A stretch of 32,000 bases of DNA. It comes from Sulfolobus acidocaldarius DSM 639. GTDB taxonomy: Archaea > Thermoproteota > Thermoprotei_A > Sulfolobales > Sulfolobaceae. The position numbers were made by a program, and so were the translations under genes. Below the pieces are notes generated by a model. It made no database searches and was not told the DNA's origin. It saw only the letters and a program-made list of their open reading frames with translations. Below, in pieces: positions 4,860-20,435 of the stretch. The stretch's first letter is position 1; each line of letters starts with the position of its first letter. Where the stretch lies: positions 90,001-122,000 of the forward strand of contig NC_007181.1 of the NCBI RefSeq assembly GCF_000012285.1, read 5' to 3'.

Positions 4860-7319
4860 GTGGGGAAGTCACCATTCATTATGTTTTTGGTAATTGCTAT
4901 CATACTTTCGCCGATAGTGCTGATGATTCAAAACAATTTCGTATACTCAGACTCTCCCTTCTTAACACCTCAATATTCCAGTGTAAGAGTTGATCAAATT
5001 TTAGTTAAAGATTTTAATTACTCGTCAAATGATAACATTTACATAATAGCGTCAGGAAATTATTCACAGATATTAGATAAACTAAACAACTCATTGCACT
5101 ACCTCTCTCCCGACTCCAAATTAATTACACCATATGAATACCTTAAAATGTTTAATGAAACATTACAAAATTATTCTAAACCGTTAATAGAGGAAATTTA
5201 CAATAAAATATTGCCACTCCACTATCTATATGGAAATCTTACCTTTGAGAAGTTGATTATTCTATCGAACTTCACGTATTTCATGTACCAATTGAACGTA
5301 TCTTATGGAATTCCTCAAGGAAAATTTAACTCTAGTAGTACCCAGGCAGTACTCTTTAAGCAAATCTTTTTCGCACAGCCTGGTTCATTGCTTGAAAAAG
5401 CCAGGAATGCTAGTCTATATGTTTTCCGTGATCCCTTTATATTATTATTTTCTTTCATGAACTATAGTAACACATCACTTGCTTACAGGACTATTATGAA
5501 TTTCAGTAATTACTCATATCTTATTTACTTATTGACAGGTAAAAGTATACCTGAGGTTGCCCTAGAAAACCCTTATGTGTATTCAGAGAAGTTAGTTTAC
5601 AGTAAAGTCAACACTTCAGGTTTATCTATTTCTAATTTTCATAAGGGTGATCAGTGGTTATTTATAGTACAAGTTCCGTCAAACGAAAGTTTACAGAATA
5701 TTGAAAACTTTATCTCCAGCATTAATTACACAGTTACCGGTCACCTACCAGTTTATGCAGATTCTGCATCAACCACGGAGTCAGATTTACGGGTAATTGA
5801 TATTGTAACTATTTTACTGGTCGCAATTCTCTTATCTGTTTTAATTAGGGCATTAGTACCGATAATCCTCCTCATTATCAGTGCGGTTATAGGTTTAGAA
5901 ATAGCATACACTGCATTATACATATCCACCTTTCTAGGTTATTCCATATACTATATTTCTGGTCTGGTTATTCCACCAATAGTGTTTGGGATTACCATAG
6001 ATTACTCAGTACTATTTTTATATAGATATTTTGAGGAGGTATCCAAAGGCAGTACGTTTCCATTAGATAAAGCTTATAGGAATGCTAGAAGAGCAATTCT
6101 CTTCAGTGGATTAAGTATAGGCTTAGGTTTCTTATCATTTCTTATATCTCCTTCTCCTTTGCTTAAAAATATAGGAATAGCATTAGTTATAGCTAGCTTA
6201 TCTGCACTAATCCCGTCTATTCTCTTTATGAAGAGTTCTCTAAGTGTAGTGTCCATCAAGTACTTGAAGTTTCCTAGAAAGCAATTACCAAGTTCTATTG
6301 ATATAAGACAACAGTACCTTTCTAAGGTAAGTAGAAAATCAATAAACTATCGATATATTGTATTAGCCTCAATGATTCTTATTGCAATATTCAGTTATTT
6401 CGTTTTTATTCACGGGAGTACGAATGGTGACATAAGTGAGATCGTATCACCAAACAGCAAAGTGTTAGTGGGAGAAAAAGAGTTAAATAATTTCTTCAAT
6501 TACAGCGTGGATTACGTTATAATAAGAGGGAACCCAAATCAGTCATACAGTCAAATCTACAGCCTATCTAAATATGTAATAGATAAAGGTGGCTTCGTAA
6601 TAGGACCAGCTGGTATAGGTAGAACTCTCTTAAATACTACCACAGAATTGACTAACTTCTTCTTTGCAGGCAATTACACACTTGTTGAGATTTATATCTC
6701 ATCTCCTGTGTTCAGTAATCAAGCCATAAATTTCACTGAAAACCTTATAAAGATGGGTTACCTTGTGGGAGGAGCTAATGCGGAGAGGGTAGATATAATT
6801 GATAATACCGTATCGATTTACTATAGCTTCGTACTACCTGTAACTATATTAATTATCACACTTTATCTTGGTCTTGTTTTAGGTTCTATCATAGTTCCAA
6901 TAAGGCTTTCACTAACACTCCTCCTAAGTTCATTATTTGGTGTTGCTCTACTCCACATAATATTTGGTAGTGTGTATTGGTTATCTCCACTCATAGTCTT
7001 TGCAATAATGTATAGTTTAGGTATTGACTACGATATGTTCATAATAGTCAGGATCCTAGAGGAAGAGGGTAATGAAGAGGAACGTATTGTTAAAAGTGTG
7101 GAAAGTACTGGTCTTGCGGTTACTGCTGCAGGTCTCATTTTAGCAGGTGCGTTTATGTCCTTAGTTGTGTCAAATATGAGATTCTTACAGGAGATTGGTC
7201 TAGCGGTTGGTTTAACTATATTATTTGACACCTTTATAGTAAGACCGATACTTGTACCAGCAGTTATGAGTATACTTAAAAAATATAATTGGTGGCCAAA
7301 AACTAAAACCAAGAGCTAA
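4860..7319 (+). CDS. MMPL/RND-superfamily membrane transporter
   Basis: 819 aa with two repeated modules, each a large extracytoplasmic loop followed by a 5-6 helix bundle. Conserved MMPL-like GIDYxxF blocks (GITIDYSVLF, GIDYDMFI). GTG start. Confidence 0.8.
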   Translation: MGKSPFIMFLVIAIILSPIVLMIQNNFVYSDSPFLTPQYSSVRVDQILVKDFNYSSNDNIYIIASGNYSQILDKLNNSLHYLSPDSKLITPYEYLKMFNETLQNYSKPLIEEIYNKILPLHYLYGNLTFEKLIILSNFTYFMYQLNVSYGIPQGKFNSSSTQAVLFKQIFFAQPGSLLEKARNASLYVFRDPFILLFSFMNYSNTSLAYRTIMNFSNYSYLIYLLTGKSIPEVALENPYVYSEKLVYSKVNTSGLSISNFHKGDQWLFIVQVPSNESLQNIENFISSINYTVTGHLPVYADSASTTESDLRVIDIVTILLVAILLSVLIRALVPIILLIISAVIGLEIAYTALYISTFLGYSIYYISGLVIPPIVFGITIDYSVLFLYRYFEEVSKGSTFPLDKAYRNARRAILFSGLSIGLGFLSFLISPSPLLKNIGIALVIASLSALIPSILFMKSSLSVVSIKYLKFPRKQLPSSIDIRQQYLSKVSRKSINYRYIVLASMILIAIFSYFVFIHGSTNGDISEIVSPNSKVLVGEKELNNFFNYSVDYVIIRGNPNQSYSQIYSLSKYVIDKGGFVIGPAGIGRTLLNTTTELTNFFFAGNYTLVEIYISSPVFSNQAINFTENLIKMGYLVGGANAERVDIIDNTVSIYYSFVLPVTILIITLYLGLVLGSIIVPIRLSLTLLLSSLFGVALLHIIFGSVYWLSPLIVFAIMYSLGIDYDMFIIVRILEEEGNEEERIVKSVESTGLAVTAAGLILAGAFMSLVVSNMRFLQEIGLAVGLTILFDTFIVRPILVPAVMSILKKYNWWPKTKTKS

Positions 7320-7380
7320 AACTTGTGATGAGCCTTACAAGGGCTGAGCTATGATGTCCTGGATCCTTGCTGATAGTTTT
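7318..7380 (+). ncRNA. C/D box sRNA (2'-O-methylation guide)
   Basis: C box GUGAUGA at 7325-7331, then a 12-nt guide GCCUUACAAGGG. D' box CUGA at 7344-7347, then a 3-nt linker. C' box AUGAUGU at 7351-7357, then a 12-nt guide CCUGGAUCCUUG. D box CUGA at 7370-7373. A 6-bp terminal stem (AAAACU 7318-7323 / AGUUUU 7375-7380) lies 1 nt outside the C and D boxes. Confidence 0.8.
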
Positions 7381-7396
7381 AATTTTTAGCCGAATA

Positions 7397-9625
7397 TTGT
7401 ATATTGGATTGATAAATACTATCAATTTTAATGAGGAATTTAGAAAAGCTTCAAACTACAACTATAGGCTTTTGAGCATTCATCTAGGTAATTGGGAAAA
7501 ATCGACATTCGATTTGTTACGGGTTTATAAGGAATTCAGGGAACCTGAGAAAGCATTGTATGCTTTTCACCCTTGGATAGAAGGTGCGAAAGATAGATTC
7601 TTTAAATTCAAGAAATATATCCCCAATCTCCTTGACCTGGATTACAGTAACTACGGCAAGATATTGGGAGGAACATATGATGTGGTCATATTAGACTTAA
7701 TGGATGACTTTAGACCCAATTATATTTCCGCACTTGTGGATTTAGTGAGGGGAGGAGGTTTAATAATAATGTACTCCGATGATCTCCAAAGAAACAAGCT
7801 TTACAAGAACTCCATCCAGAGGAACGGCATTGTGGACAATTATTTTGAGGAGAGGTTTCTTAGAATGGCTAAGTCTTATCCTGGGGTATTTCTCTTCGTC
7901 AACGATAACCTGGAAAGCTTTAACACATTTAAGACGGAGCAGCTTTCTATTATTAATTCCAAGTTAAATCCTAGAAAATCTATTATTAATTCTAAGTTAT
8001 ATAGCCTATGTTTGACCGATGATCAGGCGAAGGTCTTAGACGAGTCTCTGTTTATCTTGGAAGATGGAAGAAGAGTGTTAACCATCACTGCTCCAAGGGG
8101 AAGGGGTAAAAGCTCTTCTATAGGTTTATTCCTCTCACATTTGAGTACTCTTAACATCTCTTTAGATATCATTATAACTTCTCCTTCGTATTATTCCTCG
8201 ATAGAAATTATTTCTTTTCTGATAAAGGGTTTGGATCAGTTAGGTAAAAGATATTCCATAACTAGGTCTAGAGATGGCAAAGTAATGGGTATCATGTCTG
8301 GAGCTTTAAGAGTGAAATGGTTAGCCCCAGATGTGGCAAAAGATTATCAAGGAGATATAATAGTAGTAGACGAAGCCGCATCAATAGGCACTGAGACTTT
8401 AGATTATATAGTTAGAAGTTGGGAGAAAGTAATTCTCGTGACCACAATTCACGGATATGAGGGTACGGGCAAAGCCTTCTTAAAGTATCTTAATGGTCTT
8501 AGAGAGGATAAAAGTATAAAGTTTAAACATGTGACTTTAGAGAAACCTATAAGGTATGCTAAGGGAGACCCGATAGAGAGATTTATTTATGACGTTATGC
8601 TTCTAGATGCAGAACCTAAAAAAGAGAATGAAAACTTAGAATTCACAGAAATCGATAGAAAAGAACTATTTGAAAAGGATCATCTATTAAGGCAGGTTTA
8701 CGGAATTCTTGTCTCTGCACATTATAGGAATTCCCCAGACGACCTAATGATACTAGGAGATCATCATTTTCAACGTATTTTCTCATTAGGAAAGATTGCA
8801 GTTGCACAGGTTATAGAAGAGGGTGCACTGGAGAAAGGAGAAATAGATAGAATTTTGAATGGTAGTGGATTAGAAGGACATCTAATTCCTTATAAGCTTA
8901 CGCTATATGAGAGACTTCAGGAATTTGGAAAGTATAAGGGTTGGCGTATAATGAGAATTGCGGTTCAACCAGATGTTCAAAACAAGGGATTTGGTAGTAA
9001 ATTATTGAGGAGTGTGGTGGAGAGAGGTAAAAGAGAGGGTATTGATTGGATAGGCGCATCCTTTGTGGCTGATTATAGAGTAGTGAACTTCTGGCTTAAT
9101 AATGGTTTCACTCCTGTACATTTATCTAACAGAAAAAATGAAGGTCTTAACGGATATTCTATCGTAGTACTTAAAGCACTGAATGAGGCTATAGAGCCTA
9201 TAATTAACAGATTATCAGTATTACTCAGGTTTAAGATTTTGCATACAGCTCACCAGTTATACTTTAACGTTAATCCTCTTTTGCTCTCAAAAATCCTGAG
9301 GGGGACTAATATTGACAGTAAATCGTCTAACTATCCTGTAAGTTTCCCCAAGGAGTATTGTTATAAAATAGAATCCTATTTGAAGGGAATACTGGAATAT
9401 AATAGTGTTGCAGATGGAATTCACGCTGTTACTCAGTATTATTTTCTTTATCCAGATCACTTCTTGGAAGAAAGAGAGGAAGCAGTTTTAATAGCTAGGA
9501 CACTTCAGGGCAAAAGCTGGCATCATATTTCATTAAGTACTGGAATAGACAGGAGAGTAGTTGAAGAATACATGAGATCTTCTATAGACAAGATATATAT
9601 GAAATATTGTGATAGAGTGTTGTGA
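7397..9625 (+). CDS. tmcA: tRNA(Met) cytidine acetyltransferase (Nat10/TmcA family)
   Basis: Helicase-type Walker A APRGRGKSS and Walker B VVDEAA. GNAT acetyl-CoA motif RIAVQPDVQNKGFGSKLL. The longest ORF starts at TTG 7367, which lies inside the C/D sRNA. In-frame TTG codons at 7397 and 7409 are the first starts clear of the sRNA; the true start is uncertain. Confidence 0.85.
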   Translation: MYIGLINTINFNEEFRKASNYNYRLLSIHLGNWEKSTFDLLRVYKEFREPEKALYAFHPWIEGAKDRFFKFKKYIPNLLDLDYSNYGKILGGTYDVVILDLMDDFRPNYISALVDLVRGGGLIIMYSDDLQRNKLYKNSIQRNGIVDNYFEERFLRMAKSYPGVFLFVNDNLESFNTFKTEQLSIINSKLNPRKSIINSKLYSLCLTDDQAKVLDESLFILEDGRRVLTITAPRGRGKSSSIGLFLSHLSTLNISLDIIITSPSYYSSIEIISFLIKGLDQLGKRYSITRSRDGKVMGIMSGALRVKWLAPDVAKDYQGDIIVVDEAASIGTETLDYIVRSWEKVILVTTIHGYEGTGKAFLKYLNGLREDKSIKFKHVTLEKPIRYAKGDPIERFIYDVMLLDAEPKKENENLEFTEIDRKELFEKDHLLRQVYGILVSAHYRNSPDDLMILGDHHFQRIFSLGKIAVAQVIEEGALEKGEIDRILNGSGLEGHLIPYKLTLYERLQEFGKYKGWRIMRIAVQPDVQNKGFGSKLLRSVVERGKREGIDWIGASFVADYRVVNFWLNNGFTPVHLSNRKNEGLNGYSIVVLKALNEAIEPIINRLSVLLRFKILHTAHQLYFNVNPLLLSKILRGTNIDSKSSNYPVSFPKEYCYKIESYLKGILEYNSVADGIHAVTQYYFLYPDHFLEEREEAVLIARTLQGKSWHHISLSTGIDRRVVEEYMRSSIDKIYMKYCDRVL

Positions 9626-19628: not shown

Positions 19629-19665
19629 CTTCATAAATATAAATATCATTGAATTTTATTATAAG

Positions 19666-19724
19666 TAGGGGTATCTAGCCCTCTGACTGCCTCGCAGAGG
19701 GCTGTGTGAGGAGGGCTTCCTGCC
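19666..19724 (+). other. GC-rich structured element (candidate small RNA or 5'-UTR structure)
   Basis: About 60% G+C by hand count, against an AT-rich background. 9-bp stem AGCCCUCUG (19677-19685) / CAGAGGGCU (19695-19703). A second GAGGGCU copy at 19711-19717 could pair alternatively. Confidence 0.3.
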
Positions 19725-20435
19725 GTGAATTTGATATATATATTACAAATAGTCTTGACTTCCATAATGTTAGCTCACACATCTTATCTTGATATTAAAA
19801 AGAGAGAAGTCGACCTAAAAATATGGGCTATCTACGCCCCTCTAGTAATCTTCTTCATATTCAACTATCCACATCTTAATCTGTTTCTATATTTATATTC
19901 AGTCATAACTGTAAATTTAATCATGTATTTTTTATACCGTTTCTCAATGATGGGAGGTGCAGATTTGATACTATCCATAATTCTGTCTCTCAGTAATGCC
20001 ACGACATATCCCATATTTTTCCCTAATCTTTCATCAGAAGGCTTTGAGCCTTTTCTAGTCATTCTGTACGGTTCTATAATCATACTCCTATCAGGCTTAG
20101 TCAATCTGTTCAGGAACTTAAAGTATACAAAAGGTTATTCATTGACGATAAGATTGAATCTTGCTATTTCTGCCAGGAGGATAAAAGTAAAGGATTTTCT
20201 ATCTTCAAAATTTCTATTCCCATTAACCGTAATAGATGAAAAAGGAAACCAGAGTATTAGAACTAGTTTTGATGTGGAAGAGGATGATGAAGAATGGAGA
20301 AAATTATATCGGGAGTATGTAGGGAAAGGTTTAATCAGAGAGGAAGATTATATTTGGGTTATGTGGGGTGTTCCAGTAATTCCATTTTTCTTCTTAGGCT
20401 ATTTAATAAGTCTTGTGATAGGTTTTCCTATATAG
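19725..20435 (+). CDS. pibD: Type IV prepilin / preflagellin (class III signal) peptidase, A24 family
   Basis: 236 aa polytopic membrane protein. Asp23 in SYLDIKK and Asp80 in MGGADL. As I recall, these are the positions of the two catalytic aspartates reported for Sulfolobus solfataricus PibD, which has the same length. GTG start. Confidence 0.85.
   Translation: MNLIYILQIVLTSIMLAHTSYLDIKKREVDLKIWAIYAPLVIFFIFNYPHLNLFLYLYSVITVNLIMYFLYRFSMMGGADLILSIILSLSNATTYPIFFPNLSSEGFEPFLVILYGSIIILLSGLVNLFRNLKYTKGYSLTIRLNLAISARRIKVKDFLSSKFLFPLTVIDEKGNQSIRTSFDVEEDDEEWRKLYREYVGKGLIREEDYIWVMWGVPVIPFFFLGYLISLVIGFPI

Follow-up and report, generated by a model that had tools for sequence, protein, structure and literature searches.

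What does the short element at positions 7318-7380 of the stretch analysed here do, lying as it does between a gene for an MMPL-family transporter and tmcA, a gene for an RNA cytidine acetyltransferase? The stretch (hereafter the window) comprises 32,000 nucleotides (nt) of Sulfolobus acidocaldarius DSM 639, NC_007181 90001-122000, from a genome that is a single contig of 2,225,959 base pairs (bp); coordinates are those of the window unless marked as genomic. The original prediction, made from the letters alone, had read the element as a C/D box small RNA (sRNA) hidden at this place. We find that it is the published Sac-sR24, and we hold it highly likely that this RNA is a canonical C/D guide for transfer RNA (tRNA), which would direct 2'-O-methylation of G23 in tRNA-Gln (Gm23) and of U34 in tRNA-Thr(UGU) (Um34), that it is trimmed from read-through transcripts of the MMPL gene, and that its adjacency to tmcA is incidental.

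Identity and box C/D architecture of Sac-sR24

The RNA itself is already in print. In Dennis et al. 2015 (BMC Genomics 16:632), Additional file 1 has an entry 'Sac-sR24, 97321, pos' with a small-RNA-seq coverage of 6634 and defined read ends. The tables of L7Ae RNA immunoprecipitation sequencing (RIP-seq) by Daume et al. 2017 (mBio 8:e00730-17) give 97321..97378 with reads in all libraries, together with a RIP-seq peak over 97295-97416 (log2 fold change (log2FC) 1.21, p = 0.022). Locus and 58-nt sequence are identical to ours, and the RNA itself shows no difference. Hence, the core of the original prediction, an archaeal C/D box sRNA, had been established experimentally beforehand, and two of the checks proposed with it, for a discrete transcript of about 60 nt and for association with L7Ae, were already in print; the RNA, published at least twice, was not hidden. 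The locus is an ordinary, already known member of a well-known class, and the target assignments made below are a modest addition to it. Sac-sR24 was not found among the ribosomal RNA (rRNA) target predictions in the accessible parts of Dennis 2015 and Daume 2017, and the reachable literature yielded no published tRNA-target assignment for it; the tRNA-Gln G23 target may already be listed in Omer 2000, Ziesche 2004 or the Lowe snoRNA database.

Base for base, the element has the architecture originally described, with four boxes, guides of 12 nt each, a linker of 3 nt and a terminal stem of 6 bp. Archaeal sRNAs of this class bind L7Ae at both the C/D and the C'/D' motif and then recruit Nop5 and fibrillarin; fibrillarin 2'-O-methylates the target nucleotide that pairs with guide position five, counted upstream from D or D' (the N+5 position). 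The parts are listed below; unless stated otherwise, they were read from the sequence.

7321..7378 (genome 97321..97378), + strand: mature Sac-sR24, 58 nt, with the same sequence and coordinates in Dennis 2015 and Daume 2017
7318..7323, + strand: 5' flanking-stem arm AAAACT, overlapping the MMPL stop codon TAA at 7317-7319
7325..7331, + strand: C box GUGAUGA (DNA GTGATGA), which aligns with its counterpart in snoPyro_CD and in several sR families
7332..7343, + strand: D' guide GCCTTACAAGGG / GCCUUACAAGGG, 12 nt; predicted target the anticodon loop of (pre-)tRNA-Thr(UGU), N+5 = U34
7344..7347, + strand: D' box CUGA
7348..7350, + strand: linker GCT, 3 nt
7351..7357, + strand: C' box AUGAUGU (DNA ATGATGT), from the sequence and from covariance-model alignment
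7358..7369, + strand: D guide CCTGGATCCTTG / CCUGGAUCCUUG, 12 nt; predicted target gene positions 20-31 of tRNA-Gln(CUG) and tRNA-Gln(UUG), N+5 = G23
7370..7373, + strand: D box CUGA, followed by one T before the 3' stem
7375..7380, + strand: 3' flanking-stem arm AGTTTT

RUGAUGA and CUGA boxes closed by complementary flanks, the order C-D'-C'-D with a short linker, two spacers of exactly 12 nt and a mature length of 58 nt are all as in archaeal C/D sRNAs. The overlap of the 5' stem arm with the MMPL stop codon holds, as does the position within the D guide of TTG 7367, which opens the longest tmcA open reading frame (ORF) in the ORF list. Given the published ends at 7321 and 7378, only three of the six stem pairs (7321-7323 on the 5' arm) are kept after trimming.

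The strict motif RTGATGA-N12-CTGA-N3-NTGATGN-N12-CTGA has three copies in the 2.2-Mb genome, all of them in published sRNAs (sR9, sR24 and sR105), and none in five Markov-1 random genomes, the analytic expectation being 9e-6 per genome. The motif at 7318-7380 is not attributable to chance. Folding of the naked RNA by RNAfold is unremarkable (z = 0.38), which is to be expected because a kink-turn (k-turn) RNA is held together by protein.

It should also be noted that the window contains a second published L7Ae ligand, namely the 'K-turn mRNA' at 19661-19730 (genome 109661..109730). It lies in the 5' untranslated region (UTR) of SACI_RS00660, and has a log2FC of 3.61 in the RIP-seq table of Daume 2017.

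Predicted tRNA targets of the two guides

The two target 12-mers that the original prediction had derived from the guides, and had found nowhere in the window, were derived correctly: elsewhere in the genome, the D target occurs at 12/12 in both tRNA-Gln genes and the D' target as a 10-bp match in the precursor of tRNA-Thr(UGU) (pre-tRNA-Thr(UGU)). For each guide there is therefore a stable RNA with which it can form at least 9-10 bp, including a Watson-Crick pair at N+5.

The D guide is complementary at 12/12 Watson-Crick positions to genome 442215 (+) and 1240440 (-), both tRNA-Gln genes (CUG, UUG), and in a scan of the whole genome these two genes are its only 12/12 complements besides the antisense of the sR24 gene itself. 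Random or shuffled 12-mers match the tRNA set at 12/12 in 2-4 of 10,000 trials. The N+5 position of the guide falls on tRNA-Gln gene position 24, which corresponds to standard G23 after correction for the length of the D-loop. In Table S1 of Wolff et al. 2020, an RNase T1 fragment GmAUCmCAGp of S. acidocaldarius tRNA-Gln(UUG), uncut by T1, is annotated '[Gm] 23'. The main text of that survey credits C/D sRNAs for G18 and U34 of tRNA-Gln(UUG) only, and has other methylated positions await a guide; G23 and C26 carry no such credit in its accessible text.

A genome scan for C/D-type guides against tRNA-Gln returned three sister guides, namely Sac-sR126 for G18, Sac-sR14 for U34, and a locus near genome 1993081 (-) for C26. 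The last reads TGATGA ... GCCCTGGAT ... CTGA and is complementary to tRNA-Gln gene positions 25-33; C26 as its N+5 agrees with the Cm26 of the fragment GmAUCmCAGp. Like sR24, all three aim at tRNA-Gln, whereas their loci and guide sequences are unrelated to it. Given that G18, C26 and U34 are also seen methylated, the N+5 rule works on tRNA-Gln. Together, sR24 and its three sister guides cover all four methylations seen by mass spectrometry (G18, G23, C26 and U34), which is the strongest argument for the D-guide prediction. The D guide most likely directs Gm23 of both tRNA-Gln isoacceptors.

A look-alike of tRNA-Gln(UUG) is present at genome 1231711-1231788 (-). Its 3' half (positions 27-75) is 100% identical to the true gene and its 5' half is unrelated; it looks like a duplication of a tRNA 3' half, such as mobile elements leave behind where they integrate.

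For the D' guide, the match that makes most biological sense is the one to pre-tRNA-Thr(UGU). Its 10 contiguous pairs involve C31-A38 and the first two bases of the intron, GG, which come directly after A38, and the N+5 position is the wobble base U34. The mature tRNA gives nine pairs. Random guides with at least 10 bp across N+5 arise in 0.6-0.7% of trials, and the 10-bp match taken alone is suggestive, not decisive. Since the two bases after A38 are the first intron bases in most Sulfolobaceae, methylation is predicted to take place mainly on the unspliced precursor.

Similar sites are known from other archaea. In Pyrobaculum, the C/D sRNAs sR46 and sR27 are predicted to methylate U34 of tRNA-Thr and tRNA-Gln (Lui et al. 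2018, NAR 46:5678), so that U34 of tRNA-Thr is a recurring target in Crenarchaeota. The predicted site of sR46 is the one we predict for the D' guide; both Pyrobaculum RNAs, which like this guide are aimed at the wobble base of one particular tRNA, belong to another order (Thermoproteales), and the likeness is one of predicted site. In Haloferax, C/D-guided 2'-O-methylation of position 34 on intron-containing pre-tRNA is established (Joardar et al. 2011, RNA Biol 8:782; Clouet-d'Orval 2001; Singh 2004). The sR-tMet RNA of Haloferax volcanii and the guide of its tRNA-Trp intron resemble the predicted action of the sR24 D' guide in that they address position 34 on an intron-bearing pre-tRNA; they differ in coming from Euryarchaeota and in targeting C34 of tRNA-Met and tRNA-Trp, and the tRNA-Trp guide sits within the intron. 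sR-tMet is reportedly a guide that pairs across the exon-intron joint.

At the other end of the same intron, a C/D-like guide near genome 1062305 (-), GATGATGA..ACTGGCTGT..TTGA, complements gene positions 54-62 of pre-tRNA-Thr(UGU), at the 3' intron-exon joint. Judging by this complementarity, a second sRNA may act on the same precursor.

The search of stable RNAs thus gave tRNA complements for both guides and nothing in rRNA. When 16S and 23S rRNA were scanned, neither guide found more than 9-10 Watson-Crick pairs, with mismatches always present, and a role as rRNA guide was discarded for want of a contiguous rRNA match of at least 10 bp for either guide. In the whole-genome 12-mer scan, 11/12 matches outside tRNAs are about as many as chance predicts.

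Taken together, sR24 would be trimmed from transcripts that read through from the MMPL gene upstream of it; its D guide would pair with the D-arm/anticodon-stem junction of both tRNA-Gln isoacceptors to yield Gm23, and its D' guide would pair with C31-A38 of tRNA-Thr(UGU) and the next two nucleotides to yield Um34 at the wobble position.

Conservation and covariation in the Sulfolobaceae

Homologues of sR24 were sought by DNA search and pattern search over 47 Sulfolobaceae genomes (genera are denoted g1, g2 and so on, genomes G001 and so on). The conservation of the boxes that the original prediction called for was found: 30 genomes of 8 genera carry all elements of the C/D architecture together with an identical D' core, CUUACAAGG. 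On top of these 30, G019 (g8) has a partial copy only, consisting of the C box, the guide and the D' half. The D' box varies across homologues (CUGA, AUGA, CGGA, CAGA, GUGA), as the internal boxes of C/D sRNAs usually do, and homologues carry complementary flanks of their own, e.g. AGTT/AACT in G018.

Across these relatives, the D' guide is the ancient, conserved half of sR24, with a core that is almost invariant. The D guide CUGGAUCCUUG, by comparison, occurs only in g1, g2, g7 and most of g14, with other sequences in its place in g3, g4, g9 and g11, and tRNA-Gln keeps CAAGGAUCCAGG in most genera. Against the tRNA-Gln of its own genome, the D guide pairs at 11-12/12 in g1, g2 and g7. In g14, C27 of tRNA-Gln has changed to G and the pairing is down to 8-9; in g3, the anticodon stem of tRNA-Gln has become GGCGG, and the D guide has given way to an unrelated sequence. 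These patterns suggest that the D guide was acquired more recently and in particular lineages.

For the D' guide, tRNA-Thr(UGU) was taken from the same genomes, and each guide was scored against its own tRNA (27 genome pairs). The precursor beats the spliced tRNA in 24 of the 27 (10-11 bp versus 8-10), usually by a single pair, and two genomes tie. Furthermore, the 5' end of the guide co-varies with the two target bases that follow A38: guide CC faces intron GG in g1, g3, g4, g7, g9, g11 and g14, guide GC faces target GC in G003, G004 and the intronless G019, and guide GU faces target AC in G001. Because the genomes are related, no P value is given for this covariation. BLAST and pattern searches found no sR24 homologue in g5, g6, g10 and g13, which are lineages with an intronless tRNA or a different intron start; for g10, neither BLAST nor two pattern searches returned anything. 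Pattern hits in two g13 genomes (G040, G042) were considered as further cases of covariation and rejected, as they have neither a D' box nor C'/D boxes and are probably coding sequence.

A farther-reaching proposal, which we regard as evenly poised between holding and failing, is that the D' guide and the first intron bases of pre-tRNA-Thr(UGU) co-evolve, that Um34 is installed before splicing, that the intron is kept partly to complete the duplex, and that sR24 is the missing guide for the 'orphan' Gm23. If true, it would be a family-wide case, at the level of sequence, of a trans-acting C/D guide reading an exon-intron joint.

Gene context and rival explanations

The features that surround the sRNA are as follows.

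4860..7319, + strand: MMPL-family transporter gene (Pfam MMPL E = 1.8e-49); the sRNA starts at its stop codon
7377..7388, + strand: TATA-like stretch TTTTAATTTTTA, rich in A and T, which precedes TTG 7409 by about 26 nt
7409..9625, + strand: tmcA, a tmcA/NAT10-type RNA cytidine acetyltransferase gene (Pfam TmcA_N, helicase, GNAT); alternative start TTG 7397, longest ORF from TTG 7367

In five genera (g1, g2, g7, g11 and g14), the sRNA starts on the MMPL stop codon or no more than a few bases away. Immediately 3' of the sRNA, tmcA is found in g1 and g2 only, being about 2 kilobases farther in g7, g11 and g14, and in g3, g4 and g9 the homologous sRNA adjoins neither gene. In the one g7 genome examined (G018), the gap between sRNA and tmcA holds an ORF of about 660 amino acids (aa) with CARDB and NPCBM_assoc domains, a surface protein (L005 1543-3057 / L170 36-1505), the longest version of which also opens inside the sRNA. 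The conserved linkage is thus to the MMPL stop codon, and this pattern lends no support to the functional co-transcription of two RNA-modification genes that the original prediction had suggested; with tmcA adjacent in only two genera, functional coupling with it is unsupported, and the adjacency looks like a by-product of gene order.

A published list from differential RNA sequencing (dRNA-seq) on NC_007181 has no + strand primary transcription start site (TSS) between genome 96191 and 98543, and none at the annotated or probable tmcA starts. Primary TSSs on the sense strand are mapped inside MMPL (window 6191, genome 96191) and inside tmcA (window 8543, genome 98543). Sac-sR12 is likewise without a nearby TSS, and its authors call it co-transcribed with its upstream gene. 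Excision from MMPL read-through is favoured because the placement at the MMPL stop is conserved and no primary TSS is mapped; sR24 most likely arises by trimming from such transcripts. The A/T-rich stretch at 7276-7289 could be an internal promoter.

The start of tmcA probably lies downstream of the sRNA, as was originally argued. In the long ORF of 752 aa, the match to Pfam TmcA_N starts with residue 23 (profile position 5). Orthologues from ten genera have their first Met 14-20 residues before a conserved (Y/F)YR motif, with nothing conserved farther upstream. The Arg of YYR is residue 20 from TTG 7409, 24 from TTG 7397 and 34 from TTG 7367. TTG 7409 fits best because it matches the Met-to-motif distances of the orthologues, and is the probable start. 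The stretch TTTTAATTTTTA would then be a possible tmcA promoter that overlaps the 3' flank of the sRNA, compatible with a near-leaderless messenger RNA (mRNA). A sigma-70 promoter scan is irrelevant for an archaeon, and its result was ignored.

The arrangement differs in the three g2 genomes (G003, G004 and G001; L011, L006 and L018, around 1500-1570), where the tmcA frame continues through the sR24 homologue. In G003, just two start codons precede the conserved QLSLGYR, namely GTG 1527, within the C' box, and GTG 1488, ahead of the sRNA; whichever of them is used, translation of the D guide and D box gives WILA(D/E). A GTG or ATG inside the C' box is the likely tmcA start in these genomes, in which one DNA stretch would serve as guide RNA and as N-terminal coding sequence. 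As a separate matter, most Sulfolobaceae, this genome included (365998-366447 (+)), have two tmcA/NAT10-type paralogues, about 46% identical (N-terminal 150 aa).

These observations bear on two other explanations of the element. It might be chiefly a cis-acting k-turn, in the 3' UTR of MMPL or the 5' region of tmcA, by which L7Ae would act on the stability of the mRNA or on the translation of tmcA, with the small RNA as a by-product. L7Ae does bind mRNA k-turns and represses translation in S. acidocaldarius (Daume 2017); the longest tmcA ORF opens within the D guide, the tmcA frame crosses the sRNA in the three g2 genomes, with G003 starts only in the C' box or just upstream of the sRNA, and tmcA has no separately mapped TSS. 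Against this, the 58-nt RNA exists as a discrete and abundant species that retains both guides, each guide has a specific tRNA complement, and one predicted site is seen methylated. Moreover, the likely S. acidocaldarius tmcA start at 7409 is 29 nt past the sRNA, and in g3, g4 and g9 the sRNA lies away from both genes. We consider this explanation very improbable.

Somewhat less remote, though still unlikely in our judgement, is an sR24 with a single function, in which the D guide alone methylates (tRNA-Gln Gm23), the D' guide being either an orphan or a chaperone that does not methylate, acting for instance on tRNA-Thr(GGU). By number, the best tRNA match of the D' guide is indeed to tRNA-Thr(GGU) (11/12), but an A-G mismatch lies exactly at N+5, for which reason this tRNA was rejected as a methylation target and kept only as a rival; in the duplex with tRNA-Thr(UGU), by contrast, U34 at N+5 is perfectly paired. 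In Pyrobaculum, conserved mismatches at N+5 have been described, as have sRNAs that target a tRNA and have one orphan guide (Lui 2018), and Um34 of tRNA-Thr(UGU) has never been observed in S. acidocaldarius. Nevertheless, no part of the RNA is better conserved over 8 genera than the D' guide, and the D guide is the replaceable one, the opposite of what an orphan guide would lead one to expect; moreover, the 5' end of the D' guide co-varies with the bases after A38 of tRNA-Thr(UGU), intron bases included.

Several points also weigh against the preferred reading of sR24 as a tRNA guide with two targets. No Rfam family reaches its gathering threshold with the element, a miss that is expected because Rfam C/D models are guide-specific. 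Below threshold, snoPyro_CD aligns over the full length (21.9 bits against a cut-off of 45, E = 0.012), as do sR12, sR2, sR9 and sR28; the covariance-model check thus gave end-to-end C/D alignments, and nothing at gathering score. In S. acidocaldarius, the D' duplex extends over no more than 10 bp, and at least two unrelated genomic 11-mers equal it by chance. Spliced tRNA-Thr(UGU) is the better partner in G003 (11 versus 9), so that intron dependence is not universal. The covariation amounts to roughly three independent compensatory events, related genomes not being independent, and g5, g6, g10, g12 and g13 have no homologue despite the same tRNA-Thr(UGU) anticodon loop. A TSS missing from one dRNA-seq list is weak evidence for co-transcription. 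The methyl group on the ribose of G23 is an inference by Wolff and co-workers from T1 resistance; tRNA-Thr(UGU) of S. acidocaldarius is outside the set of 22 tRNAs covered by Wolff 2020, and Um34 is a prediction. Finally, the causal link from sR24 to Gm23 or Um34 is a predicted one.

What is added to the published record is incremental: tRNA-Gln Gm23, a predicted and largely intron-dependent Um34 with its covariation, linkage to MMPL (not tmcA), and a downstream tmcA start. For annotation, the result speaks against the longest-ORF start of tmcA. For tRNA modification, Gm23 of tRNA-Gln gains a 12/12 guide in sR24, and Cm26 gains one in the locus near genome 1993081 (-); both had lacked a guide or enzyme in the mass spectrometry survey. 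Intron-dependent wobble methylation of tRNA-Thr(UGU) is a testable prediction, and would bear on the retention of introns in crenarchaeal tRNA genes.

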